A DNA stretch of 63,846 nucleotides, counting the filler, from Kipferlia bialata (Eukaryota), in the NCBI GenBank assembly GCA_003568945.1. It is 5 parts of 5 records of this genome, joined end to end, with 100 filler letters (N's around TTAATTAATTAA, not from the genome) between each part and the next. Parts side by side here need not be neighbours in the genome. Positions count along the whole stretch, not along the records: positions 60,085 to 63,846 come from BDIP01000575.1; 4 more parts are not named here. The stretch is one strand, 5' to 3'. Positions 12,101 to 63,846 of the stretch are shown piece by piece (positions within the stretch are counted from its first letter, which is position 1; each line of letters opens with the position of its first letter). Position numbers and translations under genes: made by a program. Below the pieces are notes generated by a model. It saw only the letters and a list, made by a program, of their open reading frames with translations, had not been told where the DNA came from and ran no database searches.

Positions 12101-15100
12101 GACGGCTCGTCTAAGACGAGTATTGATAATACCTGGCAGTGGTCGAACAGGTCACTAGAGAGCGACGTAGCCAGCCTCTGCGGGGTCTGGGGCTGGTGTT
12201 CACTGAATATGCTCGATCGTTGGCTCACTATAGCAGCGATCAGGGCAGCCAGTGGACCCTCCCCTTCCTTGGTAGCAAGGTATACAAAGTGGGAGAGAGG
12301 GGCATCAAGAGGGGTGTCTAACACCAGTCGTCCTGTGGGTGTCACCTTCCCATCACTGATGCAACCGTGTAGCTTCAGAGACTCAGTGGTGTTGGCCAGA
12401 CGGTCTTGTGTCACTGTCTTTGACAGACAGGCAATGTCCTGCGTCTCTATGCCCAGCTGGGTCAGATGCAGAACGCTGTCGTCAAGGCTGAGGTCGGTGT
12501 CTGCCATTGATTTCTCTCTTGGAGCGCATTGGGAGGATGAGCATAGTCTCAGGCTGTGTCCATCAGCCGACCTATCAAGCATGCCACCTCTCTCAGACTC
12601 CTCCACTGAGGCAGTGGTCTCACTACCAGCTGTCGTAGTGGGAGTAGTGCCAGTGTCAGACCCTCCACACCGGATGACATCCTCTGCTACAGACCCCTCT
12701 CGCTTAGGTAGAGTGAATGCCCTGAAGAGGGTTGGGAGCTCAACCACCCTGGCCATGTACTCCAGTATGGATGTAGGAGGGTTAAGGCTGCAGAGTACTA
12801 CCACGTAGACATCAGGGCGCTTCACCAGTAGAGAGCGTGCCAGTGTCAAGACCATATGCGCAGATACAGAGAGACTGGACACCTCTATCACCAGTGCACT
12901 GTACTGCGAGAGGGTAGGGTCGGACTTGCACTGGTCCAGGAAGGCTACGGGGGAGAGAGTACTGGAAGTACTGTCACGCAGTGGCATGCCACGTGCTGCG
13001 GTCTCAGAGGAATGTACATGCGCCACCCCCTTGGGGAAGGAAGTGTCCTCCATGGCAAGCGACACAAGACTGCAGTCGGAGACTGGAGTGAGAGGGTGGA
13101 GTCGTATTCAGTCAGGAAACAGATAGGAGTGTCATATGGGTCAGATGGGGATAGATACTGGTTCAAGTAGACTGTGACACACCTGCGTCCACTGCCACCA
13201 CCACAGCCCTCTCTCCCTGTAAGTACGTGACGAGTGATTCTGCAGAGGCCAACTCCTGACTGGGTCCTAGGGTACTAACTGGGGCAGGCTTGGGTGTGGA
13301 AGGACTCCCTGGGATGAGGGAGAGTGTATAATAGACATATCAGTTCCTTTACGCATGTAGTCACAGTATGCGATACCTTTGGGTACAACTGGTGTCGTCT
13401 GCCGCACTGGTGGCGCCAGTCGAGGTGTCTCCCTAACCAGTCCCTCCTGCCACTCAAGGCTGAAGGGTGTGTGGTTGGGACAGGACCCCGGGTTGATACT
13501 GGAGAACTGGTTCTTCTTGAGGTTTCGAGTGTGCACCAGGAAGCGCTGCCCATCATAGAGCACCACCCAGTTGTAGTCCCTAGAACTACCCTTGCGAGCC
13601 TTGGCCCTGATCATCTGGTTCTTGATGCGTGCACAGGCATCCACAATGTCTCCTTCCTCTCCGTCTGCACCCTTCAGTGCCAGGGGTACATCGACCCCTT
13701 CAAGGACAGTGTATGCTCCAACATATCTGTCAAAGGCGAGACCGTGCTTGGAGACAAGGTCATGGTCAGTCTCCCACTCCAGCCTGTGGAGGTATGCCTG
13801 AATCACTTGCAGAGAGACATACACGAACCCGTACTGCCCAGTCACATCAAAGACTACTGCCTGTACAAGCTCTCTGTCCTCGAACACTTCCCAGTCAGGC
13901 AGGAGGTCTGCAATGTATGACCGTACAGCCTGTTCGGCAGCAGCAGCGTCGAAGAAACGGGTGAGGGCCGTGAAGAACACTGGACGGCGGTCAGCCACGA
14001 CGGAGAATGTAGAGACCTCCCCAGTGTCCGTGTCCTGTGTCGATATCTGCCGCGCCTCCATGACTGCATGCAGGTAGTCGTCAGTCTCACTGACCCTCAG
14101 CACCTTGTAGGTGGATGAGCCTGACACACCTGGGTCAGCGACAGGGGTCACTGTGAGTCTACCCATGTCCACCTCTGGGACAGTGGCCAGAGCAGACTTG
14201 GCAGCAGCCACTAGGTCGTCACGAGCCTTCGGACCCTGGTAGAGTAGGTACACTCCCTCACTGCGGGTAGCACGTGCCTTGCGGAAGAGGTTGAAGCGGA
14301 ACGACACGAGCTCCACCCCATAGTCTAGGGGCACATACTCGTTGGCGTGCTCCAGGGAGAACTCCCGCCTGTGCAGTAGGTGGTAGTCGTGAGGGGACAC
14401 AGAAGTGATCATGAGCCGGCGTGATGGCTGCACCACTATGTCGAGAGTCTCTAGCTCGGGGAGGTCAGCCTTGACAGTGGCCTCTAGGGCGCCGGCCAGG
14501 TCCTCTATGTAGTTGACGAAGCGGATCCCATTGAGCACCTGCCGTCCATCCAGGCTGATGGTGACCTCGATCTTGAGGGTCACAACGCACTCACCCCCTT
14601 GCATACGCAGGTTCCTGGGGGTAGGAAGGGGGTAGGTAATACACAAAGTATCCATATGTAGGCAAATACAAATATTCAGACATATACATGAAGATTCAGG
14701 GAGAACTAATCCACCCATCTGTATACATGCATATACATATATATGCATGTTGATCCTGTCCATACCTGGTGACGTCCCTGCTCAGGTTCAGCTCCTCGAC
14801 ATCAGGGGGCACATCCACCTCTGCCACCCCCTCATCCTTGTGGGTGTATGGGCACTGGGGATCGAGGCACCGCCTCTTCCGGCATGTACCAGGGCTGAAT
14901 ATCCTGCCATGCAGTACGGGGGGCAGCACTAGCCTGGTGCTGGAGCCCCTGAAGCTCTTGGCAGGTGTCCTCCTGGAGGTGTTGCCACCCCTGACCTTGC
15001 GTGTAGGGGTAGGGGTAGGGGTAGGGGTAGGGGTAGGGGTAGGGGTAGGGGTGGACGCATCTCTCGTATCGCCAGGATGGGCTGTCTTCTTCGGAGTGGA

Positions 15101-15341
15101 TGCATGACCACCTCCCTCGTTAGTGATAGGGTTCCAGCCCGGGGGATGGATGAAGGGGCACTTGGGCCTTGTGCACCCCAGGCCGGCCTTGCACTCACAC
15201 TGAGTAATGTGCTGGATTGTGATGGTGTTGTTGCAGAATCCAGTCTCAGTCTCCACCGGGAGGTCGGGCCTGCTCAGCCACTGTCCATCTACTACGTACT
15301 TGTACAGGTGGGTGCCGGGTGGGAGAGAGACATAGATGGTC
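6105..15341 (-). CDS. Predicted single multi-exon gene: CBM48 (C-terminal half), CCCH zinc finger, degenerate DEAH/HA2 helicase region, RING-IBR, Ser/Thr protein kinase
   Basis: Manual splicing at GT...(CTNAC-N3/4-YAG-type) introns keeps one frame across ORFs 14696-15256, 13267-14763, 12064-13065, 9117-12059, 8800-9051 and the kinase exons, ending at TAA at 6105. Confidence 0.65.
6630..8566 (-). CDS. Ser/Thr protein kinase domain (multi-exon)
   Basis: LGKGSYGMV, KFAVKVI, HRDLKGANIM, IIDLGLCK, GTPTVRAPE, ADVYACGVLFYE, ERPTAASAL. Confidence 0.92.
9330..9730 (-). CDS. RING1-IBR zinc-binding region (RBR E3-ligase-like; no RING2 seen)
   Basis: CVYC..CGHPFCKGC..CAKC, then CVVPDC..CDSCHHSVCVQC..HEGIGCEEY. 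Confidence 0.8.
12036..12500 (-). CDS. DEAH-helicase HA2/OB-like region, degenerate
   Basis: SLKLHGCISDGKVTPTGRLVLDTPLDAPLSHFV...SDLFDHCQ/AYREW resembles the DEAH HA2 pattern. No intact Walker A or DEAH motif was found upstream. Confidence 0.55.
15007..15052. repeat. (GGGGTA)n hexamer repeat encoding a Pro-Thr linker on the minus strand
   Basis: TPTPTPTPTPTPTPT in ORF 14696-15256. Confidence 0.9.
15210..15341 (-). CDS. CBM48 / AMPK-beta-type glycogen-binding domain, C-terminal half
   Basis: TIYVSLPPGTHLYKYVVDGQWLSRPDLPVETETGFCNNTITI matches the LPPG-YKF-VDG-W...G-NN pattern. Confidence 0.8.
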
Positions 15342-15545: not shown

Positions 15546-16107
15546 CTATCCAGTTCCTCCTGCCTCTGTCTGTATGACATGGGTGCAGATGGGGGTAGGG
15601 GGTGGGCAGTGATGGGCCTGGCACGGCGGAGGTAGGTGTCAGTCACTTGCCTAGTATGTTAGACAATATCCATAAGACATATATACGTCATATATTCATA
15701 GGTGTCGGTCACGTGCCTAATGGAAGAGTGGTATATGTTTATCACTTCATGAACACTGTATCTAAAACAGATATATATACCTCCCCGGCTCCTGCGTAAC
15801 AGCTGGAGTGTGTGTTATGGGTCAAATATACATATACGAGGCTGCTCATTACTCTTACTATGACATATATACTATCACACTCTGTACCTCCCCGGCTCCT
15901 GTCTGACTGCCGGTGTGTGTGTCATGGGCCTCTGACCAGACACACCCCGGGCAGTGCCAGGTCTGGAGCCTTAAGGTGAGATGTATGAATGACCCAGTAC
16001 AATATTGAGAGAGCTGGCCACTGCCAGGTGTCTAACAACAAAACGATAGAATATATACCTGCGGTTATGGGTCTGTGCTGCAGTCTGGCCTTGTCCAAAG
16101 GGTATGT

Positions 16108-16144
<37 letters not shown>

Positions 16145-17994
16145 TAAAGAGACAGGTACAAACCTGCCGTTATGGGTCTGTGCTGCAGTCTGGCCTTGGC
16201 TGTACTGGCCCTGGACCCACCCCTGGACCTGGAGGGCATGATGCCACCTAGTCCAGCACCTAGAGGTAAGGGAGAGGTATTTATATATACTGGAGAGAAA
16301 GGGGGGGGGGGGGATGTGGACCTGGAGGGCATGATGCCACCCAGACCGGCGCCTGAAGGTTAATGCATATACATACATACATACACATGGATATATATAT
16401 AGAGAGAGAAACAGAGAGAGATAGAGGGCATGATGCCACCCAGACCGGCGCCTAGAGGTCAATACGTACACATATACATACATATACTAGTAGATATGTA
16501 AGTGAGTGAGAGAGAGAATCTGGAGGGCATGATGCAAGGGAGAGATAATGACACAAACACTAAGGTATACATACTGGTTTTAACATACACTTATCAGTTA
16601 TGTCCTACCTAGCTCACTGAGTTCACTGTCACTCCCCTATATGAACTATATATATACATATACTAGGGTATGTAGTATATGTAGTATACATGTATATCCA
16701 TACCTAGCTCACTGAGCTCACTGTCACTGCCCTCGTCCTGGATGAAGTCGTCATCATCATCCATGACACCTGAGAGTGAATATGGAGAGAGAGAGAGAGT
16801 ATACGTAGTATATAGTGTGTAATACAGCATATATTATATATTACCTAATTCAGCGAGCTCTGCCTCGTACTCATCGTACAAGAGGTATATACTACACCAT
16901 ATATACATATAGGTATGTATATATATACTGAACTATACCTAGCTCAGCCAGCTCTGCCTCGTACTCATCGTACTGGGGGGACTTGGGGGTCTCCTTGGCC
17001 TAAGAGTCAGAGATATAAACTCACAATACTGTAATACAATTGAATATTATATAGAAACAAAACCGCAATGGTGTTTATGTTGTCTGCTCATCATAGACAT
17101 CCTCAGATATGTATATCATTACAATAGATATATACATACATATATGTACATATATGTATATATATGTATAGTTTACGTGTATACACACCTTTGGCATCTT
17201 TGCTGTCTGCTCATCGTATGCATCCTCATCGTCATGGGGGATGGGGGCAGTCACAGGCCTTGAGGTTAGTACATGCAAATATACACTAGCATATAGGAGG
17301 GTATACATTCGTATTGTATAGGAGTGTGAATATTACATGCATCCTCATCGTCATGGGGGATGGAGGCAGTCAGAGGCCAAGAGGTAAGTATTGGTATTTG
17401 TAAATACAGTATATATGCTCAGACACACAGATATACACAGTATACTGTGGTGATACCTATAATCGAATCCTCCTGCCACCCTCACCACCCTCCTGGGTAT
17501 CCTGTTAAATTCTTAATACATATATTCATTATAGAATATCCTACTAATAATATAATGTTTACCTGTAGTCAAACCCCCCTGCCACCCTGACCACCCTCCT
17601 GGGTATCCTGTTGTGGCTGGTCTCCACTAGGGGTCTGCCTGAAGGGTGAGACACATATACACACATATATACATGTATAGAGAGAGAGAGACAGACAGAG
17701 ATACTGGTGTGGCTGGTCTCAACTAGGGGCCTCCCTGGGTGAGAGTGGGTAAATATAGGTGTATGTGAATGTATGCATATATATATATCATGTGTGAAGA
17801 CACATAGGTTCACAAAGAGTCACTCAATTTGGAGTGTAGTAGTGACAATCACCTGCATTGCCTGGCTTCCTGTATCTAACATTTGGGGACTATATGGCAT
17901 ATATATACATATACATACACACGTATCTCTATTCTTATACTCACCTGCATTGCCTGGCTTCTTGCCCCTCTGACCCTGGGCAGCAGTATCCATC
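15546..17994 (-). CDS. Internal exons of a low-complexity protein of unknown function (recurrent RPITA/RPVTA/RPGTA motifs, acidic stretches)
   Basis: Phase-compatible short exons, e.g. GRPLVETSHNRIPRRVVRVAGGFDYR, PVTAPIPHDDEDAYDEQ, AKETPKSPQYDEYEAELAEL, KARLQHRPITAG. Confidence 0.65.
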
Positions 17995-18025: not shown

Positions 18026-18125
18026 NNNNNNNNNNNNNNNNNNNNNNNNNNNNNNNNNNNNNNNNNNNNTTAATTAATTAANNNNNNNNNNNNNNNNNNN
18101 NNNNNNNNNNNNNNNNNNNNNNNNN
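18026..18125. other. Artificial contig linker N44-TTAATTAATTAA-N44
   Basis: Six-frame-stop spacer, repeated identically four times in the window. Confidence 0.98.
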
Positions 18126-18230: not shown

Positions 18231-35801
<17,571 letters not shown>

Positions 35802-36140
35802 CTGGGGGTGAGACCAACACTGAGATATATATATATATATAAGTATTGTTGGGAACTGGGAGGTATGTCTGGAACCAGAGGCACTGGGGGTGAGGTCACA
35901 CATATACTATATAGGAAGAGAGATCGACACAACGAGGAGAATACTAGAGGGTCTGTCTGGAACAAGAGGCACTGGGGGTGAGGGAGACAGAGAGACCGGG
36001 GGGGGGGGGGGGAGGAAGCAAGAGAGTACTGATGCAAGGGAGAGAGTATCATAGACACTTGGAAGAAGTCTGAGACAAGAGTAAACATTCGAAGCGAGGG
36101 AAGGGGGGGGGGGGGGGGGGGGGTCTCCCCTTTTGGGGAC

Positions 36141-36240
36141 NNNNNNNNNNNNNNNNNNNNNNNNNNNNNNNNNNNNNNNNNNNNTTAATTAATTAANNNN
36201 NNNNNNNNNNNNNNNNNNNNNNNNNNNNNNNNNNNNNNNN
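36141..36240. other. Artificial contig linker
   Basis: N44-TTAATTAATTAA-N44. Confidence 0.98.
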
Positions 36241-47361: not shown

Positions 47362-47461
47362 NNNNNNNNNNNNNNNNNNNNNNNNNNNNNNNNNNNNNNN
47401 NNNNNTTAATTAATTAANNNNNNNNNNNNNNNNNNNNNNNNNNNNNNNNNNNNNNNNNNNN
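47362..47461. other. Artificial contig linker
   Basis: N44-TTAATTAATTAA-N44. Confidence 0.98.
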
Positions 47462-47671: not shown

Positions 47672-49230
47672 TCACAGGCCCTGAAACAGGGAGGGACTAT
47701 TCACAGTAGAATTGTCATCGTTTGAGTACCTCCCTACAGCCATGCCCCTCCGTCTTTCCATGAGTGCCGCAGGTGGGTTCCACCTCACAGGGGCAGGAGG
47801 GGTGAGGGTAGTGTCCTCCCAGAGGCCTGGGGTCAGAAGCATAGTAATTGTCGCAATCCTGTATATGCATATGTGGTATATATATGGTGGTTCTACCATA
47901 TATGATAGAGACTATTTGATAGTAGGGTCGTGTCCTCCCAGAGGCCTGGTGTCAGAACGATGGTAACTCAATCATGTAAAGGTATATGTGGTGGCTCTAC
48001 CATTCTGGTTACCTTCTGATAGTGATTCTTTGACAGTGGAGACGCTTCACTAAGACAAAGCCATGTACAACTTGATGGATCATATTCAGTTAGCATTACC
48101 TCTCAGTGTGAACCTCCCCTCTCCTGTCACCCAGAAAGCATCCGACACAACCCCATACACCCCAGTAGACCTCACTCTCGGGCCTCCCTCGCACGTCCCC
48201 TCCTTCCACTCTGCCACGTCTGGGTCAAACAGGGCATATCTAGTGGCAGTAGGCCCTGGTTCTGTGGCAGCAACCTGAGCCTCCAGCATACTTCTAGTGA
48301 TATGATAGTGCCCTTGCCGTCTGAGTTTCCTTACCAGCTCTTCAGAGGCAGTGGAAGCTGGCATCTCTCCCAGACGCACGAGTACTCCATCTGACAGTCA
48401 GCGCGCTAGGTATTCGTTCGGTTACAACGATGATAGCGGGAGACAAGAAAGCCAGAAATGATTCCATTCCTTCACTATACCTAGCAAAGCAAATGAGTAT
48501 CTCTAGGAGAGTCCTAGTAGAAGTACAGGAATAGCATTCTTTCCTGGCACAAAGTCATAGACACAATACCAACGACAAGGCAAGACACTACTAGCAAAAG
48601 TTCATGAGTCCTTGCATTACCTAGCACAAATGAGTACACACAGTCCCACTGAGGAAGCCCCGGCACAGCGGTGATGCCCAGAGTGGCAAGGTCAAGTAAA
48701 CAGAGGGTGGGGTTGGGGTGCTCCTCTTCTGGGATCTCCCTCTCCCTCTCCCCCTCCTGCTCCATACCAGTTGCGGTGTACACTCTCTCGTGGTGGGGTA
48801 GATGAGAACTGAAGTGAACAGAGAGTGCAAATGATTTGACAGGAGAGAGTGTCTGAGTCTGGACGAAGTATCATGGGCATTATGATACAATACCTATGAC
48901 AAAAGTAGTATTGCTTTAAAGTCCACAGTCACGCGCGCAAATATACTCAGAACAGAAAGGCGGTGTCAGCAGAAGTACATGCTTCCTACCTCTTCAGCAC
49001 CATGTACACCCTGTCCCCCACTTGCCCTATGCACCTTGACAGCTTGTACCCACTGGGCAGAGCCACTCTCTGCACTGTCTCTACCACTGAGAGGTCCGGT
49101 GCAACAGTCACCACACTCAGACAGTTGACAATGTCAACTTGACATACACCCTGTCCCCCTTCTCCCTGATCTGCTCTTCACTGAGCCCCCCTATAGTGGC
49201 ACGATACCTCATCGCATATTGGTTCCCATC
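47672..49230 (-). CDS. Multi-exon hypothetical protein or decayed gene
   Basis: Coding-like exons (PTLCLLDLATLGITAVPGL; RYALFDPDVAEWKEG) with splice signals. Not fully reconstructed. Confidence 0.35.
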
Positions 49231-50248: not shown

Positions 50249-51068
50249 TAGGTGATAGCCACCCTCTGGTGAGTATCTAGGCGAGCATAGACCACACCCA
50301 CATACCAGGGTGGATGGGTTGTATGCTTAGGTCAAGATAGGGTCAAGTGGTGATGGAGTGTAAAACTACAATAACAATACTACACAATGATATCGGTGGC
50401 TCTATATTTGTACAATATTCATTATACATCCCATATGTCGAGGATATGGAAGATACAGTAATGTGGCAACTACTTACTTCTGTCTGGATGCTCTATCCAC
50501 GTTATCCCTGTGCGTCTACGCATCTCTTTGAGCAGCGCATCTAGGGTCTCACATCTCAACTCCCACAGACCGGGAGGGAGACCTGGAGGATAAGGACCAA
50601 GCACATAGGTCCTCCCATAACACATACATATGCATAGACTATACTGGATACTTTACATATGCGCTTGTACACACCCTGTATTAACACACGTAGATACCTG
50701 AACTTGGTCTGTATGACTTTTACACATCCTTACTATGTCCGAACTGTTAGACTTATATACCTGAACTGGGTCTGTATGGCCCTGGTCCTCCCATCACACA
50801 AACACACATATATATAGTATACTGTATACTATTCTTTATACACACATACACTCTTGCTATGTCCGAATTGTTGGAGTTAGATACCTGAGCTGGGTCTGTA
50901 TGGCCCTGGTCCTCCCTTCACACATACATATGCATAGAGTATACTGTATATTATACATATGCACCTATACACACACCCTTACTATGTCTGATGTATACCT
51001 GAGCTGGGTCTGTATGGCCCCGGTCCTCCCTTGTGGTAGTGGTACAGGTACTTCCGAGAGTCGATCAT
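50249..51068 (-). CDS. Small spliced gene of unknown function starting MIDSRKYLYHYHKGGPGPYRPSSG/LPPGLWELRCETLDALLKEMRRR
   Basis: ATG at 51068 after an in-frame stop. The phase-1 donor at 50998 joins the only open frame of the exon at about 50478-50582. The 3' end is uncertain. Confidence 0.5.
50608..51030. repeat. Tandem array of exon 3' end + donor + intron head (spacings 114, 124 and 63 bp)
   Basis: ACCTGA(G/A)CT(G/T)GGTCTGTATG with the exonic part starting at 50999, 50885, 50761 and 50698, and similar intronic sequence between copies. Confidence 0.9.
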
Positions 51069-51547
51069 TGGAAGATGTGGCAGTTAATAAGAGATACAGA
51101 GAGACAGTGTGGTTGAAGCCCTCTAGACTACAATCCTTCAACTTGAGGGTCTCAAGAATCGGAGAATCGGAGAAGGGATTGACCAATAGAGAATCTCCTA
51201 ATTGTGAAGAAGTCTCAATTAAGCTTACCCAAGGCATTGTTAGCAATGCTGTCATAGCATCGTCTGAAAGAGAAACAAGAATACAGATGTGATAAGTACC
51301 ACAGCCGTAGAATTTATGCAAAAGACTGAGTCATATATGCTATATAATGAGTCAGTTTCCATGACCGATTCGATCGGTATGTCCAGCAGATACCAGTGAC
51401 AGGAAAAGACTCAAAGCAACGTGTGTTGAGTCAAATCTATTTGACAATGTCGCATGACCCACGAGTGACATATCAACCCTTGTCACACACACATTACATG
51501 AACTGCTCCATCCACTCGTTGCCTGTCACGAGACCTGTGCTGCACAC

Positions 51548-53373
51548 TATGTAGGTGTGGCCCTCCTTCTCCCCAAGGTGACGGAAGGCGGCAACCTCAC
51601 TCCTGGTGACACCGCCCTGCTGTCAGCTATGGCGTAATATTTGAATTATAGACTATCACAATACACACACACACAAATGGAAAGAGAATATTTGCATATA
51701 TACCCATATATATATATATATATATGCAGGTGTGCTGAGTACGTACCACAATGAACACCACACTGGCTGTCTGATCCCCGTAGGCGTCTCTCTCTCCCCT
51801 GGGCCTAGACGCCTCTCTCCCACTCTCGCTATCCTTCTCAGAGAAGCCACGGCTAGCACCCTGGTGGTCAATTAAAGTCAAACAGAGTCATTAATAGTCA
51901 ATATGGGTACCTTGAGTCCCTTGAGAAGTCTCCTGACCTCCCCCCTCTCCTTGAGGAATGAGGTGATGCCACTGGCAATGTTGTCCTGTAGTGAGAAAAG
52001 GGGGAAGAGAGAGAGAGAGAGAGACAGAGACAGAGATGGGAGGAAGTATATAGAGAAAATGTATAATTTCAAAAGAGAGAAAACATTTACATATGTATAT
52101 ATATATACCTTGAGGTTCTCGCTATCTCTGGTCCTCTCTCTCTCGAGGTCTCTCTCCCTCCCTCTCTCCAGCTCATGCATGGCAGACACAACCCTGGGAA
52201 TAAGGGTCTAGACGGAGAGAGAAAGTAAGGGTGCAGATGGGGAGAGAAGGCCACCAAATGAATACCTGGTCGTCATGGGTGCACACACATATATAGACGT
52301 ATACATTTATGCTCAAAACATATATACACATACTATTGTAAAAAGTATAATGTACACTAATAATCATTGTATGTTATACACTACTATATATACCTTGTTG
52401 TCATGGGTGCGTAGTGGCTGTACACACACATATATATATATTAATATATGAATATATATTCTCCATACATTATATATGTATAGTATATATATATATATAC
52501 CTTGTTGTCATGGGTGCATAGTGGCTGTAGACGTATCCCTCGCCCTTGGGCTTAGAACTGGACCCATCCCCTGGGGTCAGTATATACGAATTCACATTGA
52601 ATATTGTCTGGCCTCGTAAACATAAATGCCCACATCGTGTATATGATACATAATATATCTATACACAAATATATTATTGCAGAGACTAAACATTCTGCAC
52701 TCACCCTCTGAGATTGCTGCCACGTAGTCGTACTTGGTCAGGTGGTAGTGCCTCCTGGGGGTAAGGGAGGGGAAATGGTATATGTATATACATAAATACA
52801 TATGTATATACATATATATACATGTATATAATACTATGTGTGTTAAAACAAGGAGTTAAGTCAGGTGGTAGTGTCTCCTGGGGGTAAGGGAGAGAGAAAG
52901 AAAGGGGGAGAGAGAGGGAGAGAGAGAGAGAGTGGTAGTGCCTCCTGGGGGAAGATGGTAATTGAGACTATATTTCAGAAAAGAGAGAGTAACGACAGTC
53001 GCTGAATCCAGTGACATTATGACACCAAAGCAATAAAATATAGTCATATACTAATTACTTACTAACTCAGACAGACCATACAATACCCTATCCTACCTAG
53101 TCTGGTCCCACTTGTCCCCATAGCCAAGGGGGGGCACGGGGATCCTGAGGGTAAGGATACTAGTGCATAGAGATACGAGTATATATATATATATATGAAG
53201 AGTCCAGGGGCACAGGGATCCTGGGGGTGGGAATACTTCCATACTCGTATTATCCTATGTACAGAGATAATGGGTGGGGGATCCTGAGGCTCAGAATACT
53301 ACCATATTTATATATATCCTATGTAAAGAGATAATGGGTGGGGGAGACAAATAGGGAGAAGAGAGAGAGGGGG

Positions 53374-53408
<35 letters not shown>

Positions 53409-55096
53409 CTACCTGGAGTCCTGCAGGCTCAGCAGGCCAGCAATCTCAAGGTTCCTGAGGTGAGGGCTTGTGTGGAATGAACAGAACAGAAAAGTATAGT
53501 ATACTGAACAAATAGTCCAATTCGCTGTACCTGAGGGCACTTGCTACTGATGCCCCATAGCATGACACTACTAGACCCACGGCACGCTGCATGGTCTTCC
53601 TGTCAAGGCCTCCATCCACGACAGACAGGAGGCAGAGGGCCCTGGTATTAGAGGAAACGACACACAATAGTCAATATATACAGACGAATATATATATATA
53701 TATTGTGACGTATATCTAGGCCTCCATCCACCACAGACAGGAGGCAGAGGGCCCTGGGCGTTAGTATACACATACATGACATAATAATACACATATGTAT
53801 ACATAGACAGAGAGAGAAAGAGAGAGGATATCTAGGCCATCATCTACTAGCAGACAGAGGGCCCAGGATATGATAAAGCAGGACGGATCAATTAAAACAC
53901 TGGTACACAACTTCACATGTATATATATATATATACTACATACCTTAGCACTCTAGCCTTGTGCTTGGGTGACATGGTGGGGTTGGTCTCATCCTCTCTC
54001 TCTCTCCCTCTCTCTCTCAATATATATATACATATAAACATACATATATTCTATAAAATACCTCAGCACCCGAGCCTTGTGCTTGGGTGACATGCTCGGG
54101 TTGGTCTCGTCTGCCATACAGGCCTGGATCACATCCTCCAGTCTATCAATGTACTTGTTGCCCTGGGGTTAGCATTTTAACAACCTAGTAACAATAATTA
54201 CAGTGCAGTCAGATTGTAAATCACTCTCTAATCTGTACAATGTACTTGTTTCCCTGGGATTCGCATGTCACCAACTGAGTAAATACATAACACATATATC
54301 TGTATACACGATCCCAATACCTTCTTCTCCCCCTTCAGCAGGATCGATGACTCGTACTTGTGCAGTGCGGGCAGGAGGGCATCCTTCTTGACAAGCTTCA
54401 GGATGTCCCTGACAAAGGAGGCAAAGTTAGTAAGAACCTTGGATCAGATACATATAGACAAAGAGAGAGAGAGAGAGAGAGAAGGATGTCTCTGACAAAG
54501 GAGGCAAAGTTGGTAAGGACCTACAGTAAGAGCAAGAGAGAGAAAAGGATGCCCCCAAATGACCGAAGGAATAACAGGTAACGTCTTTAGAGTAGACACA
54601 CAGAGAGCGAACTATCGTTCTCATAATAGTAGTACATACCTGCACGTGTATCCTGCTGATCAGCCTCTGCTGTCCCTGCTGGGCAGATGAGGTCTCGAGG
54701 TCATTCTCCAGGCCCTGGGGGTTAGCTGCACTATATGACTCGCGCTCATATGTATCACATTATGATATGACAAAAATCTCTGAATCTCGCTCTATAGGGT
54801 CATTCTCCATATCCCCTGGGTGCAAGAAGTGTCATTGATAGCAAAGACAAAAGGAATGACGACTATTCCGCCATTATATCCACTAACCTGCACCCTCTTG
54901 AGTATGGCAAAGTATGGGTCGAGGAATACAACTATAACGAGGATTCAAAATAGTATATTAAGAGTTGGAAACATATATATCTATATCTCTCTATATACTC
55001 CCACCTGCACCCTTTTGAGTATGGCAAAGTAGGGGTCGAGGTCAAGGAAGTGGTTGTCCTGGGGTGAGATGACATATATACACATACATACATATA

Positions 55097-55135
<39 letters not shown>

Positions 55136-56949
55136 ATATATAACATATATATAAATATGTACAACAAACAACAGTATATATATGTGTATGTGCACTTGTA
55201 TGTGTATGTGTCTAGGTGGTTGTCCTGGGGTGAGACGACATAATAAGGCTAACTATAAATACATTTGAATGAAAATGTTGATATAAACTCATACCTGTAA
55301 GCTGTAGAAGACATACTACTCTCCTGCGTGCTTTCATAATCACAACAACACAAGTATCCAAAGATCTCGTAAATCCATACCTGAATGCTGTGGAAGATGG
55401 GGTTGTTGTTGTTGATGCAGCAGGAACGGGTCTTGTCAGCAGAGACCTGGGGTGTCAGAAGGGAGATACACACACATAAACACATATATATATCCATAGA
55501 GAGAGAGAGAGAGGGAGATAGGAAGGAACGGGTCTTCTCAGCAGAGACCTGGGGGGGAGGAAGGGAGAGAGATACGTGGACACGATACAGGGAATAGGAG
55601 GCACCAAGAGAGAGAGAGAGAGAGAGAGAGGGTGTGTGTGTACCTGCAGGTGACACATGGAGTGTGCACAGTTGGCAAGGGACAGGTCATGCAGAACACC
55701 TGGGGTAAAGGGGGGTAGAGAGAGAGAGAGAGAGACAGGTCATGACCTATGTCTTACTATTTACACTTCTCTGCCTCCTACCTCTGATTGTGTCCTCTGT
55801 GTGCAGAATGGCCTACCTTCTCTCACATACACACACACAGTCTCTCTCTCATTCTATATGTCTCACTATATATATATATATATCTGCCTGATACCTGTGA
55901 TTGTGTTCTCTGTGTGCAGCATGGACACAGGATCAAGGGCCCTGAAATAAGGGGTGTAGAGACAGAGAGCATACAATATACATTGAATAGTTGGAGGGTA
56001 AAGGCAAGGAGTCCGGGACCCCGTACATATGTATAAATTTGAATATACACATATTAATATATCTATATATATAATCATATATCCAAATATATATACATGC
56101 CCACCTGTCCACGATGTACAGGTCGATGCCGCTGCCCTCCATCTCTCTCTCCCTGCTCTCGGCAGAACCAGAGTCACTGGTGTAAGGGTGTAGATTGGAG
56201 GGAGAGAGATAGAGACACTCGGCAGAACTAGAGTCACTGGTGTAAGGGTGAAGAGGGAGGAAGAGAGAGAGATAGAGATTCCTCCGCACACATCGTACAG
56301 TGTGGCGGTTTATATAATGTGAAGGCCAAAACACTAATATTTGAACACACTGGATATTACTCATATAACCATACACATGCCCCTGGCTTCTGTGTACACA
56401 TGGTGCAGTTAAGATAGTGAATATAGTATGATTTACGATAAATATGAATATATACAACATGAATATATACGATGAGAGAGATGAGTAAGAAATATAAATA
56501 ACACATATACATACCCCTTGGCCTCTGTGTACACATCGTGTAGCTTCGATGCAATGTCACCCTTGGCCATCACTCTGTCGAAGCCTGGGGTGGGTAAAGG
56601 GTGTAGGGGGAGAGAGAGAGCCTCAGACAACAACTACGTGTGTCTAGGTACTTCCGTCGATGTATCTCTCTAACTGTCTGAGGCCCAGGGCACTGTGAAT
56701 GTGTGTATATATATATTAATATTCATATATATATATCATATATACATATATACCTCCATCAATGTATGGGGTATATATATAAATATACCTCTTTTCACAC
56801 ACATACTTATATTTAGACATGAATGTAAAATATATATACCTCCGTCGATGTATCTCTCTAACTGTCTGAGGCCCAGGGCACTGCTGTAGAGGGAAGAGGT
56901 GTTGGTGTCGGTGGCAATCTAGGATGACGGGTGGGTAATAGTGAGAGAT

Positions 56950-57000
<51 letters not shown>

Positions 57001-59811
57001 ACTGCTGTAGAGGGAGGAGGTGTTGGTGTCGGTGGCAATCTGGTACGTGAGTAAAAGTAATATTTAGCTTGAATACATATATGCAATTACAGAGTCCCAG
57101 ATGGAGGAGCAACACACCACTGTAGCAAATATATACGGACCTCCCTCCATGTCATGTGCTATGAAGGGGGCATCCCACATATACACTTTATATATACACC
57201 ACTAGTAAATATATATACATAGACCAGGTATATACCTCCCTCCACACTGTAGTGCCCATCTCCAGCACATCTCTGTCATGTGCTATGAAGGGGGCATCCC
57301 ACACAGCCACTCTAGGGCCACTGCCTGCAAGGTGGTCGGAGACACGCTGCTGGGATGAGATATACTAATATGTATATATATGGAGAGAGAGAGAGAGAGA
57401 GAGGACCTGCATAGTGGTCGGAGACACGCTGCTGGGATAAGAAGTGTACTATCTTCCGTGTATCTATATATAGGGAGAGACGTGCGAATATAGTGAGAGA
57501 GAACGGCTGCCAGGTGGTCGGAGACACGCTGCTGGGATAAGAGGTGAATATATATACATATGCATTGGCTGTGAGAGAAATACAGCATGGGGCCACTGCC
57601 AATATATACATATTTATGTACATGCACTCACCCCGTAGTACTCTGGCACGTACTGGATGAAGACTACCAGCCAGTCAGCCTCAACGTCGCAGATGGACTG
57701 GGGTCAGATACATTGATAGCGGCAAAGATGAAAATGTAACCAGAGAGTATATATATAAATATCTTCCATACAATGCTTGGTTATATAATTATGACAGCCA
57801 GTCAGCCTCAACGTCGCAGATGGACTGAAGTTAGACACATAGATATATAGAGAGAGAATACAGAACTAGCAGCCACAGGTGGACTGAAGTGAGAAGCTCC
57901 ACAATTGAGAAATAGTATGGGAGACTAGACCTCAAAGAATACTTCACATTGACTAATGTACTATAAAAAGCAATATACCACGAATTGTGACAGTGTATTA
58001 TTCACTGATGTCTGTCTATAGATAAGGAGAGAGAGATGACCTCCATCTCCGTGAAGCACTGTATGAGGCAAATATTGTTATGAAAACAGAGAGTGCATAC
58101 ATCTTGTATTCAATATACTTGATATATATATACCTCCATCTCCGTGAAGCACTGTGTGATACACAAGTACCCAAAGAGAAAGAGTTCAAAATGGTATAAC
58201 AATTTACATGTCAATATATATATCATAAGATGATGTATATATCTTTATATATATACAATATATATATATACCTCCATCTCCGTGAAGCACTGTATGAGCT
58301 TGGACACGTTCTCCCAGGTGGGTCTGAGGACAAATATCTGGGAATGAGGGTGTAGCGAAAGAGAGAGAGAGAGGCAGAGAGACAGAGCCTACCAGGTGGG
58401 TCTAAGGACAAATATCAGGAAATAAGGGTGTAGAGAGAGAGAGAGAGAGAGATGTAAATACATACCTTCTTCTTGACGTTCTTGGCAGCTAGTGGAACGC
58501 TGAAGGTGCCTCTGATGCCTGAGGGTCAGAGAGAGAGAGAGAGTAACAAGAACATAGAGGAAATACCCCGAAGTGGCATTCTAGGATACCGACAGTCACC
58601 ACACTCCCAGTCAATGAGTGTACATATAGCATACGTAAACATATTATTGTATACCCGTCTCGCTTCTGAACACCGGCCATCCTGGGGCAAGGTTGGTGGG
58701 GATCTCAGTGGCCCTGGCGTTAGGAATAATAATAAAGACCATACTATACTATGATATGTGATATACTCCATTAGACCCGTACTACTGTCAATGCATCACT
58801 ACCTCTGGCTGTCCCAGAAGTATAGCAGGCCCAGTGAAATGGGGAAACACATAAAGATACAACCATACATACTGCTGTATAACACACACTCTCTCTATAT
58901 ATATACAACCATACCTCTGACTGTTCCAGAAGTATGGCAGGCCCAGTGCAATGTGGGCAGAGAGGGAGGGGTCAAAGTAGAAGGCGGTGTTCTGGGGTAA
59001 GAGAGAGAGAAAGAGAGAGAGGGAGGTCAAATCGAAAGACAAGAGTGTTCTGAGGTTTGTCATTAATACATAAAAGAACACAGTACTGATACAATCACTG
59101 CTGAAAGGGGATTCCATTACCCTATACCATAGTGTATCAACATAGCACCCACCGTGAATGTGAACACTGTGCCCTGGTACCCCTTGAGACGCTGATAACG
59201 CTGGGGGACGTCCTAGGTGTTAGTTCTTTGTGATTCGAGGAGAGAGAGAGAGACAGAGAGAAAGTAAGCGAGATAGCGATGGTAGACATCCTTGGCAAAC
59301 TATACCGTGATGCATGGAGGATATGCAAACAAAATGCCATTCAAAGCTAATGTAAATAGTCTCTATACACTGTACCTTGGACACTATGTCTGTGAACTGG
59401 TTCAGTGCATCGGTGCGGTACCTGGGGGTAGGGGAGAGGGGGGGGGGGAGTATATAAGACACAATGTGTCCATATAAATATACAACTACTATATATACCT
59501 ACCATAGAGTACACCCATACCTGTCTGCCAGTGATACAGTGCTATGGAGACTACATCACACAATCAGTACATGATATTATGTACCTATCTATTCCTATGA
59601 CACTGTCTGCCAGGTAGGGCTGTCTCTTGCCAGCATGGTGGAAGGTGTCCTAGGGTAAGGGAGAGACAGAGGGGGAGAGAGGGAGAGACAGAGGGAGAGG
59701 GGATAAGGAGGGATGATCCCTGTACATCATAGTGGAAGGTGTCCTAGGGTAAATACATAATTATTTGTATGATACAGAGTGAGAGAGATTGTAGGTATGG
59801 TGGAAGGTGTC
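51548..59811 (-). CDS. Large multi-exon protein of unknown function; 5' end missing
   Basis: Phase-compatible exon chains, e.g. ATEIPTNLAPGWPVFRSETG/IRGTFSVPLAAKNVKKK/IFVLRPTWENVSKLIQCFTEME and DNHFLDLDPYFAILKRVQ/GLENDLE../VLTNFASFVRDILKLVKKD. Confidence 0.7.
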
Positions 59812-59984
59812 CTAGGATATATGAGGGAGAGAGAGAGAGAGTCAGATATTAGATATATACAGTCAGAGTCACAGAGACACAGACAGACAGACATCCAATG
59901 GGATAGAGAGAGACGGTATGGAAGAAGGAGAGATGGGGGGGGGGGGGGGGGGGGGGGGGGGAGAAAAAAAAAAAAAAAAAAAGA

Positions 59985-60084
59985 NNNNNNNNNNNNNNNN
60001 NNNNNNNNNNNNNNNNNNNNNNNNNNNNTTAATTAATTAANNNNNNNNNNNNNNNNNNNNNNNNNNNNNNNNNNNNNNNNNNNN
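59985..60084. other. Artificial contig linker
   Basis: N44-TTAATTAATTAA-N44. Confidence 0.98.
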
Positions 60085-63000
60085 CATGAGCTGTGTCTGT
60101 CTTCACTCTCTCTCTATATATATATATACACATATATATGCATACACTAACCTCTGCCTGGCCACTGCCATGAGCTGTGTCTGTGCCCCCCCCCCCTCCC
60201 TTTCTCTCTCTCTCTCTATAAATATATATATCATTATATATATACTATATATATACCTCTGCCTGGCCACTGCCATGAGCTGTGTCTGTGCTCTCTCTCT
60301 CCCCCTCTCTCTCTCAATATATAAATTCAATATGCACTACTGACCTCTGCCTAGCCACTGCCATGAGTTGTGTCTGTGTGGCCGGTCTGCCACCCTGGCC
60401 CATCACAGACGGCATGGGCACACCAAGGGCCTTGTTGTAAGTGAGGCATGTATATATGTAAATATACATATAGAGGCAGAGAGAGAGAGACATACAGAGA
60501 GACAGAGAGACAGAGAGAGGGATGGTGACAGAGAGGGCACAATCTTACCTGTAGAGGGTGGACCTTCTTGCCCTGCTTCTTGGCCTCAGACATATATATA
60601 CACACACTATATTATATATCATATATACATATATATATGTTATACATATATACTATACCTGCAGTGGGTGGATCTTCTTGCCCTGCCTCTTGGCCTCGGC
60701 TATCTCGGCATCCCGCTGCAGCTTGATCTGGTGGTTAGACATCATATACACTGCTGATATAGTATACAATATGAAGTATTAAATAGTACACATATCTCGG
60801 CATCCCGCTGCAGCTTGAACTGGGGGGTGAGACACCCCATATTCGTATAGTATATGATATATATAGCCTATCAGATGCAGTAAATAGAATACAGTACAAT
60901 GTATACACCACCCGATTCACTAACATACCTTGTAGTCGGATGTCTCCATGAAGGCCCGTCCCACAGCACATACTTACACTATATATACTATACTATGATA
61001 TATCTATGATATGTATAATCTTATATATATATAGTGTGTGTATGTGTATATCCATATATGCATACCTTGTAGTCGGGTGTCTCCATGAGGGCCAGTCCCA
61101 CGGCTGCCTTCCTGAGGGCACCCACATCATTGGTGCCATCGCCACACATGAGGGGGGCCATGCCTGGTATTTGATATGTATATATACGCTAATATGGGGT
61201 GGGGGAGAAAAAGAGAGAGTTGACGCCAAATAGTATAGATAGATACTATAGTAGGGGGCCCATGCCTAGGGGTTAGAGGGAATGTATATGTGTACAGATA
61301 TATATATATATATATATATATATACGTATACCTGCATCTGCGAGCACTGCCACCACAGCAGCCTTGTACGGGGTATAAACACATATATTCACCCAACCAT
61401 AGATTCATACATCTATCTATATATATATCATATATCTATGTATATACATGTACATACACACCTGCATCAGCGAGCACTGCCACCACGGCTGCCTTGTTGT
61501 CGGGGGAGCACCTGGCAATGACCTGTGGGTAAGAGAGAGAGGAAGAGAGAGAGGGAGAGAGAGATAGATATTCACAACCAAGATGGCAGCATGCAACATC
61601 ATGTATATATGAATACCATACCTTGAGCAGGGGTGTCACGAGTGTGGCCAGGGCTGGGATCTCAAGGAGCTCGTCAAGCTTGTTGCCTGATGGTAAGGGA
61701 TAGTCCAAGGCTATAGAACTAACACCCACATATATATAGTATATCATACTATACTTCATCATGCACCTGATGCACACAGTGCCATCTCCCTGATGTCTGG
61801 CAGTGTCTGCCCAGGTGTGATAGTATACATGCATATACATATATATATATATATATATATACTATACCTGATGCGCATAGGGCCATCTCCCTGATATCAG
61901 GCAGTGCCTGTCCAGGTGTGATGGGCAGAGTGGCAGGGGGCACACTAGAGACACCAGGCTGCTCAGCATAGAGGGGCTCAAACACAGCACAGGGAGGGGT
62001 GGGTTTGGACTGTCATCAGCAACCGCGTAGAATAGGAGGATCGCGTAGAATAGGGGAATCGCGTAGAATACGTACCTTCTTGTCTGCAGGGTCTGCTGGG
62101 GCACCTGGAGTGACAGAGGCGAGGCGCATGACGGCCCTGCCCTTGGCAACAATGGCACTCTTCCTACACGATAAGGAGGGGTATCGCGTAATTGTGATAA
62201 TGAATATGCTATATAATGTATATATACCTGGCAACAGCTGCTGCTGTGTGCAGGTTGTCCCCTGTGATCATATATATATATATATATATATACTACATAT
62301 ACTACTACACCAATATAGTAATATACTACTACACCAATATAGTATATGTTGTATACCTGGCTACAGCTGCTGCTGTGTGGAGGTTGTCCCCTGTGATCAT
62401 GATATATATATATATATATACATATATACTACTAAATACACTACCATGCCAGTATAGTATATGTTGTATACCTTGCCACAGCAGCAGCTGTGTGGAGGTT
62501 GTCCCCTGTGATCATGATGCACCTGTGGCCACTGGACTTGAGGGACAGGATGGTCTTCCTGGAGGTAAGTCATCATCTATATCAATATACATATATACAT
62601 AACCACTATGATACTATAGGTTCTATATACACTGGACTTGAGGGACAGGATGGTCTTCCTGAGGGTCAGTGTACAAGATATATATATATCAATAATATAC
62701 CGCACTATGCATACGCAATATACACACCGCCATGTCATCTCTCTCTCTATATATATTATTATACATATACCTAGTGTCTGTCTTCAAGGGACTGTCACTC
62801 AGCATCAGTCCGGCAAAGACTATATTAACCTATACAACACATAAATACCTGATATATACTATGCATACTACATACATACTACATACATATATACCTAGTG
62901 TCTGTCTTGAGTGGACTGTCACTCAGCATGAGTCCGGCAAAGACTATATATATACAAACAACATAACTACTTCATAATATATGTATATTCTATATACTAT

Positions 63001-63696
63001 ATAGTATATACTATATATACCTAGTGTCTGTCTTGAGTGGACTGTCACTCAGCATCAGTCCGGCAAAGACTAGGTCCTTCTCAACCTCACTCCTCTTCTT
63101 GGTGCGGATGACGGCAGATCTGACGGTGAGACTAACTTGTCACTAATCGAGTAGAGTCTTGTCACACACCGTGTACCACTCACCCTGATGACAGGTCTGT
63201 CTGTCCACCCAGTCTATCTTACTTGTCACACAGTATAATGCAGTTAATATATAACGTGTAGCACTCACCCTGATGACAGGTCTGTCTGTCCTCCCAGTCT
63301 GCGGTAGGCAAGGGCAATCACCCTGTAGCCCTGTCTGGAATGGTCAGATATGAAGAAAACACCCATACATACCAAAATTATGATAGATAACAAAACAGTA
63401 ACTCTGAAGCCGTGTCTGGAGGGGTCAGAGAGAAGCCGACAAGGATGATATAGTATATCAAGAAAGATGATTGACATTTTCAGAGGGTATATATTTTCCT
63501 GGTAGCCTTGGACAGCTCTGCCTCGACCCACTCTGACACACAATAAGAGACAATATAGAAGGTATATATAGATAGGAAAGGTAGATATAACTAACCTGGT
63601 AGCCTTTGACAGCTCTGCCTCGACCCACTCTGGTGTCTCAGTGCACATGGTGGAGATGACCTCTGGTGCTCCCTGATTATTAATGTATATTCACTC

Positions 63697-63740
<44 letters not shown>

Positions 63741-63846
63741 TCGGGTGTCTCAGTGCACATGGTGGAGATGACCTCGGGGGCACCCTAGAGAGTTAGAGAG
63801 AGAGAGAGAGAGAGGGGGGGGGGGGGGGGGGGAGAGGGGAAGAAGC
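60085..63846 (-). CDS. ATP13A1: P5A-type ATPase (Spf1/ATP13A1-like), internal N/P-domain exons
   Basis: [66 protein letters not shown] (the P5A-type variant; P5B enzymes have GDGANDCGAL). Confidence 0.85.
62024..62070. repeat. Intronic 18-bp tandem repeat (CGCGTAGAATAGG..) x about 2.6
   Basis: Directly visible inside the intron between the ..ADKK and SKPTPP.. exons. Confidence 0.85.

Follow-up and report, generated by a model that had tools for sequence, protein, structure and literature searches.

The window, by which we mean the whole 63,846-nt stretch of Kipferlia bialata DNA that was analysed (GCA_003568945.1), consists of five parts joined by filler, and all counts given below refer to this window only. 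Artificial spacers, in which a 12-nt TTAA repeat is flanked by 44 N on either side, lie at 18026-18125, 36141-36240, 47362-47461 and 59985-60084, and an additional N run occupies 1629-2467. Two open frames are intronless: one of 899 aa on the plus strand (2547-5246), which contains many pentapeptide repeats (PF00805, E 1.5e-55), and one of 983 aa on the minus strand (9117-12068), which contains an IBR domain in its final part (PF01485, E 5.2e-6). A long minus-strand exon at 14768-15337 begins with about 40 residues (KYVVDGQW motif) that match prokaryotic-looking metagenome loci, followed by CCCH-like and Pro-Thr repeats; its start presumably resembles a glycogen-binding module. A short tandem array with a 10-nt unit is found at 430-477.

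Self-alignment of the window revealed short repeats in dozens, spaced at about 100 nt and concentrated in intron-rich genes. Fifty-two exons were modelled in six copy-rich genes, and the four main models are stop-free. Each modelled exon was aligned to both flanking introns at a score cut-off of 26, which unrelated introns pass in 0.34% of 2912 exon-versus-unrelated-intron controls; copies scoring below 26 were left uncounted. By this procedure 61 partial copies were found at 36 of the 52 exons. It should be noted that the six genes were selected for repeats in the self-alignment, and hence this proportion is not a genome rate.

One of these genes is a Sec1-family fragment on the minus strand (51494-59649; PF00995, E 4.7e-6, under the curated cut-off), in which 28 exons were modelled, stop-free to a TAA, with 25 half-copies. 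Nests, in which an exon has half-copies on both sides, occur there at exons 58337, 57349, 56918 and 54162. An 8-exon modelled gene at 15546-17994 (minus strand) carries 13 half-copies, with nests at exons 17638, 17258 and 16259. Smaller cases, all likewise on the minus strand, include a stack of three 3' half-copies at what is probably a first coding exon (ATG at 51068; 50697-51068), exon 47826-47730 with one 5' half-copy (47730-47945), and exon 35801-35714, which has a pair of 5' copies as well as a short 3' copy (35641-35971), these three copies being of a decay type discussed below. The 3' copy of exon 57349-57236 at 57179-57141 (minus strand) has a clean internal deletion of 29 nt, leaving the last 9 exon bases and GT. 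Short or decayed copies around the threshold were seen by eye on the minus strand near 59530, 59310, 56300, 54810, 53280-53220, 27120 and 23470; most are uncounted, and they suggest older layers.

Copies are not spread evenly over the window. A 27-exon gene on the minus strand (27457-22086, approximate boundaries), ending in what we take from its motif to be a BEACH-like domain, has a copy at one exon only. Its introns are short and plain (median 72 nt) and its exons have a median of 112 nt, whereas the copy-rich genes (15.5-18.0 kb and 51.5-63.8 kb) combine short exons (median about 70 nt) with long copy-free introns (median 135 nt). Microsatellite density is 0.009 in the copy-poor gene and 0.049 in the copy-rich genes. 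From the contrast in exon and intron length comes the speculative idea that half-exon duplications might also seed new introns.

The stretch from 60,085 to 63,846 (BDIP01000575.1) holds, on its minus strand, a P5A-type ATPase gene fragment with 11 modelled exons and 16 half-copies. All 11 exons (63672-60345) are bounded by AG and GT and chain to 938 nt without a stop. The best solved-structure matches of one exon are P5A-type ATPases (E 2.7e-6), and another lies near Cation_ATPase clusters; Pfam returned no family for two short exons of this fragment, and the GAPE exon alone found no match among solved structures (1 hit, E 3.8). At exon 60430-60345 a third copy is truncated by the spacer 59985-60084, and stacks of half-copies may therefore be sites at which contigs break.

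The GAPE nest (63499-63784, minus strand) is one instance of the arrangement. The complete exon (63596-63672, 77 nt) runs from CAG to GT, translates as [25 protein letters not shown] and forms the 938-nt stop-free frame with the 10 exons downstream. It is taken as the working exon because it is the sole piece in which both splice sites and the frame are kept. Before it lies a 5' half-copy (63741-63784) that covers exon positions 1-44, or 1-41 by the strict end call; this half has a TAG acceptor in front and no donor, and it is separated from the exon by a 68-nt spacer of (CT)n(AT)n (63673-63740) that ends with the working CAG acceptor. After it, a 60-nt spacer (63536-63595) begins with the working GT donor and leads to a 3' half-copy of exon positions 41-77 (63499-63535), which, as a correction, is followed by GA instead of GT and so has no canonical donor. 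All three pieces named in the preliminary description are present, and the five codon differences that it listed between halves and exon (GGA/GGT, GCA/GCC, CCA/CCC, CCA/CCC and TCA/TCC) are indeed all silent; the fourth silent change of the 5' copy sits at the cut end and could be spacer sequence. The two halves score 68 and 69 in local alignment against a maximum of 35 in the 2912 controls; therefore, the similarity is not due to chance. They had also been said to overlap by a few nucleotides. The alignment ends do give 4 nt, but the halves disagree at exon position 42 (C vs A), so these 4 nt cannot all be the staggered end of one allele; the strict end call gives 1 nt, and the true value is nearer 0-2 nt than 4.

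Further along the same gene, half-copies accompany several exons. The working exon after GAPE (63269-63334) has a 3' half-copy at 63184-63215, with its GT donor kept and one silent change. The next working exon (63021-63119; [10 protein letters not shown]...PLKTDT), whose letters match a spliced contig described below, has two stacked 3' half-copies with the same cut point: copy 1 (62895-62946), with the donor kept and one silent change, and copy 2 (62771-62822), with three silent changes including CTC/TTG. The neighbouring nest is built around working exon 62472-62558, which has a 5' half-copy with its acceptor kept (62630-62658) and two 3' half-copies, at 62357-62403 (four silent changes) and 62228-62271 (five silent changes).

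Over all copies, a simple side rule was observed: 25 of the 26 upstream copies begin at the exon start, and 32 of the 35 downstream copies extend to the exon end, so that 57/61 are anchored at a splice site. The adjoining dinucleotide is retained in most of these (AG in 23/25, GT in 30/32, 53/57 overall). No copy comprises a whole exon (0/61), the largest amounting to 0.69 of its exon. The repeated unit has a median length of 107 nt (range 60-188), and the spacer is always at least 41 nt. Eleven stacks of two to three copies were found, mostly with a common cut point. Breakpoints are far from uniform (KS p 2e-4 and 2e-5), copies ending near the exon midpoint. Unit lengths fall into the three remainders modulo three as 14/20/13; frame-preserving retention of units was rejected on this lack of a multiple-of-three bias.

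The second regularity concerns the differences between copies and exons. For codon counts, three bases were trimmed from every cut end, and one copy was trimmed by hand where its alignment entered the intron. In 535 codons there are 87 silent and 33 non-silent differences, a silent share of 0.725, whereas a copy lying dead next to a working exon is predicted to give 0.39-0.43 (p below 1e-10). Estimates of dS (0.23-0.27), dN (0.03) and dN/dS (0.10-0.13) between copies and exons are like those of working alleles. Four-fold sites differ at 63/280 and zero-fold sites at 31/1038, a ratio of 7.5 where dead copies predict 2, and the four-fold excess persists when the count is limited to the nearest copies; it is seen in three genes and for upstream as well as downstream copies. 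Copies also differ from one another mainly at silent sites (13 versus 7 in 17 pairs, p 1e-4). The amino-acid changes that do occur in copies are milder than random (p 0.02-0.04), with 0 stop codons among 32 changes. Codon-usage drift was rejected as a cause, silent changes toward and away from G/C being 31 versus 32. Neutral decay of same-allele duplicates was likewise rejected as the general cause, since it predicts a ratio of 2 and 7.5 is seen.

Neutral decay does agree with what is seen in the three copies at 35.6-36.0 kb. These differ from exon 35801-35714 at non-silent sites only, and silent bias is absent from them (0/13 four-fold, 5/38 zero-fold). By comparison, 37 of the 57 anchored copies have 0 first- or second-position changes in 683 sites and 63 third-position changes in 334. 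Across copies, third-position and other-position rates are negatively correlated (rho -0.35, p 0.008). These observations suggest two classes of copies, an allele-like class and a smaller decay class. In most copies the changes are nearly confined to third positions and the splice dinucleotides are kept; therefore, such copies have been dead only briefly, and their source was a distant coding sequence. Most copies were coding until recently, and their source was about 20% different at silent sites.

Divergence is also graded along the copy: third positions differ at 24% close to the splice site and at 10% by the cut end. Divided into halves, the copies show 51/229 differences next to the splice site vs 30/249 next to the cut end (p 0.003). 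The intron flanks of copies and exons remain related, though at great divergence (p 6e-7 for acceptor flanks and 2e-3 for donor flanks): only 5/25 acceptor and 5/32 donor flanks exceed the 95th centile of the null, and ungapped identity 6-15 nt from the splice site is 0.35-0.66, compared with 0.28-0.41 at unrelated sites.

The presence of the copies in DNA was checked over 62150-62975 (826 nt), which covers the neighbouring nest and the two stacked copies, two cut ends in TA repeats being skipped. Contigs of sequencing run X1 tile this region at a depth of 389-458 with no alternative letters. One runs from the cut end of the 5' half-copy 62630-62658 through the spacer into working exon 62558-62472, another joins two different dead halves, and a third joins two stacked copies; a shared 43-mer has a depth of 1031. 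On the repeat side of the cut ends the contigs have 30 letters, one under a 31-letter bridging rule, which is to be expected of 31-mer contigs meeting a repeat. No copy-free form is present among the X1 DNA contigs of this region, and no second allele or length variant was found in the contigs over these 826 nt, contigs being such that rare variants are dropped.

These data bear on whether the nests were produced by an assembler placing contigs of different haplotypes or strains end to end. Haplotype contigs breaking at shared exon words would be expected to give a silent bias, pieces of half-exon length and identity close to the cut end, and the window does contain artificial gap spacers. However, the separately built X1 contigs carry the junctions unchanged at full depth, with the copy-free DNA contig absent, and X1 contains 0.96 of the sampled words over 51400-59984, where 25 invented junctions would remove an estimated 9% or so. 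X1 may nevertheless be the source run of the window itself, and the check consists of contigs at the neighbouring nest. We regard an assembly artefact as very improbable. The contention that the copies are real structure is thus upheld at the neighbouring nest, where contigs cross the junctions at even depth.

Treatment in RNA could be followed over the same region. A 2159-nt contig from X2, presumed to be RNA, links exon 62558-62472, without any alternative letter, to the exon upstream, and the intron between them has CT..AC ends. Among the runs listed as containing window sequence, none is registered as RNA, a result without bearing on expression. None of the five copies in 62150-62975 is included in the X2 contig; its sole mismatch to copy 1 is the letter of the working exon, and its loose ends run into working exons on both sides. 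The contig removes a 462-nt intron despite decoy sites offering introns of 112 and 212 nt, a choice that would fit pairing of splice sites across the exon (exon definition).

It is conceivable that the copies are nevertheless used at a low level, with non-canonical splicing, guided by the repeats, putting a copy in place of the working half in minor transcripts; the copies would then be under direct selection. A dN/dS of about 0.1, 0 stops among the 32 amino-acid changes and the mildness of those changes are what such use would leave, and rare isoforms would be hidden in contigs. On the other hand, a GT-AG switch point that would let a copy replace the working half exists in 4/57 copies only, the one X2 contig has working letters and passes over every copy in its region, and multiples of three are not favoured among the unit lengths. 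Some copies moreover lack splice sites, and one has the 29-nt deletion. Low-level use is accordingly judged improbable.

The near-coincident breakpoints and end resection of the preliminary description point to a reading of each nest as the product of a single event: one mid-exon break would bring in a complete exon and its flanking sequence from another allele, the old halves would remain as the nest, and any gaps would reflect resection. If so, 5' and 3' halves might co-occur beyond chance. They do not: exons with both number 11/52, vs 10.4 expected (Fisher p 0.78). A one-break model with independently failing ends would also yield such a count, so that this result removes support without refuting the idea. 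Gaps of about 11 and 26 nt had been reported between other paired halves; gaps of 11 and 25 nt were recovered, together with gaps of 13, 20, 35 and 42 nt and overlaps of 8 and 11 nt. With loose end calls, an absolute gap of up to 5 nt is seen in 3/11 nests (means of 1.4-3.1 under four nulls, p 0.16-0.66), and with strict end calls in 4/11 (null means 1.1-2.8, p 0.014-0.29). The strict end rule was adopted after the first test, a threshold of 8 nt gives p 0.07-0.73, and n = 11. Across nests, the 5' end and the 3' start are uncorrelated (rho -0.17, p 0.61); halves lie close in nests because copies span about half an exon, in a nest or not.

Several details do lean toward a single break. Under strict ends, the halves of three of the 11 nests (63672, 56918 and 17638) overlap slightly and meet to within 4 nt, the 4-nt overlap at 56918 is identical in both halves, overlaps above 5 nt occur in 1/11 nests only (strict ends), and against nulls drawn from non-nest copies p is 0.014-0.02. 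These three nests leave room for a one-break subset. Set against this are the lack of any nest excess, the uncorrelated cut points, the p values obtained with loose ends or at the 8-nt threshold, and the fact that 25 of the 36 copy-bearing exons are not nests. A single break as the source of both halves is weakly suggested, and as a general account it is unlikely. The assertion that unrelated random duplications are not responsible is borne out for the copies; the coincidence of breakpoints, from which it was drawn, is weak (p 0.014-0.73, depending on null, threshold and end call). The strong regularity is the half-exon rule together with silent bias, not the nest.

The explanation that we favour, at a probability of roughly one half, is that the halves are mirage-like tandem duplications within introns, each comprising one exon end and the splice site belonging to it, formed by break repair from a divergent allele followed by end joining. 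Under this model, alleles would share little but exons of 60-100 nt, and a break would occur inside an exon. One broken end would invade the exon of the other, strongly diverged allele, and would copy the rest of the donor exon along with 40-100 nt of donor intron. If the copied end failed to anneal back, it would be end-joined to the other broken end; the new half would then become the working half, leaving the old half stranded in the intron. Stranded and working halves would differ silently because both coded until then. Selection would keep only products with one whole exon. The spliceosome would cope with these, since it matches an acceptor to a donor over a short exon and passes over solitary sites. 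Stacks of units with a common cut point would then arise by unequal exchange. A nest would likely record two events, one per side, while a minority may stem from one break with both ends mis-joined. The earlier appeal to break repair is in this respect retained, as the likeliest source of the copies, without the reading of one break per nest. In Caenorhabditis elegans, end joining of failed SDSA intermediates has been shown to yield tandem duplications from about 100 bp up (PMC8654963).

Of the explanations considered, this divergent-allele model is the best fit: it would account for the side rule as well as the silent bias, and also for intact splice sites and diverged flanks. The repair donor would have been a divergent allele, and the allelic divergence that the model demands, about 20% at silent sites, is one that we infer, the X1 contigs giving no sign of a second allele in 826 nt. 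A metagenome scan with the 190-aa exon of the gene at 15 kb returned 16 loci among 299 candidate stretches, which matched over the first 50 residues only at 36-59% identity and included no allele or close relative. Several points count against the model. It needs a very high event rate or turnover (36/52 exons are hit, and most copies are undecayed), and it leaves the half-exon stop and the third-position gradient (24% to 10%) unaccounted for when taken alone. The three copies of one gene without silent bias and the 27-exon neighbour with a copy at one exon also weigh on the negative side. Cut ends adjoin low-complexity intron sequence, and scoring of junction microhomology would call for the ancestral introns.

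The gradient in particular would be expected if old mirage arrays were exchanging continually with the working exon by unequal crossing-over or conversion. The copies would then be spare half-exons under indirect selection at the protein level, since harmful changes in a copy would reach the exon and be purged. Besides graded divergence (p 0.003), this account is favoured by the intron flanks, which diverge far more than the exon parts do, and by the cut points common to stacked copies; amphioxus mirages are reported as length-unstable and partly homogenised (PMC3087553). However, exchange frequent enough for purging would be expected to remove silent differences on one chromosome as well. Were it to take place between divergent alleles, it could spare them, but it would then be a variant of the divergent-allele model; moreover, X1 holds no length variant, as far as contigs can tell. 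We consider continual exchange within arrays rather unlikely.

A more far-reaching form of the divergent-allele model is that this lineage recombines exon by exon, repair routinely swapping half-exons between alleles, so that the stranded halves would be an exchangeable stack of recent functional alleles. We offer this only tentatively, as the odds are clearly against it. If it were true, one genome would record several alleles per exon along with the positions of mid-exon breaks, exact nests would be single capture events, and exon-definition splicing would be the enabling condition.

The wider phenomenon is real where tested, and neutral decay does not explain it. Mirage-type repeats appear so far, in the literature accessible to us, as curiosities of a few amphioxus genes, and here they occur at most exons of several genes. 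A dN/dS of about 0.1 is unexpected for dead copies and makes their origin testable, as descent from divergent alleles or exchange with working exons. The copies also provide a natural test of splice-site choice: introns here start from 50 nt, and the bypassing of decoys points to exon definition. In practical terms, the copies mislead gene prediction (a trial gene finder called several of them as exons) and may break assemblies.

Four known systems resemble these copies in part. Mutually exclusive duplicated exons, such as exons 5a and 5b of SCN, are neighbouring copies with mostly silent differences, but they are whole exons with both splice sites, and none of the 61 copies here is whole. Intron gain by tandem genomic or internal gene duplication also duplicates an internal segment with its splice signals; that route makes a new intron from AG|GT inside the duplicate (PMC3443670). 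Here 4/57 copies only could do so, and the old sites are the ones used in the spliced contig. The polymerase theta duplications of C. elegans helq-1 and brc-1 mutants are similar in that the joining of an extended break end to its partner leaves the copied tract in duplicate. They differ in being identical sister copies, their median size in those repair mutants being about 1 kb, whereas the copies here are tight at about 107 nt and differ as alleles do (PMC8654963).

The closest parallel is with amphioxus mirages, known from Adh3, the globins BflGb6 and BflGb9, troponin C and PGBD5, whose mechanism is given as unclear (PMC3087553, PMC3902484). Mirages are likewise tandem duplications across an exon-intron boundary at either exon end (here 57/61 are anchored and the flanks are closer than unrelated sites), many of their units keep AG or GT (here 23/25 and 30/32), normal splicing is undisturbed (here in one presumed-RNA contig over 62150-62975), and the units are minisatellite-like and head-to-tail, of 10-160 bp (here a median of 107 nt, range 60-188) (PMC3087553). 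Unlike the present copies, mirages are described from a handful of genes, in arrays of two to seven units that are 81-100% alike, the latter figure being for BflGb6 (PMC3087553). In the window, 36/52 exons of copy-rich genes have one to three copies per side, often at both exon ends. The intron part of mirages aligns well by eye (PMC3087553, supplement 4), whereas the flanks here are barely alignable. The silent bias is 7.5-fold here, and the accessible text reports none for mirages, on whose alignment we made no such count (PMC3087553, PMC3902484). In the mostly open-access literature consulted, no dense, silent-biased half-exon copies were found. Density, silent bias and barely alignable intron flanks would thus be new with respect to mirages, and the copies in the window, which are not alike over the whole unit, would represent a variant of the mirage and not a plain member of that class.
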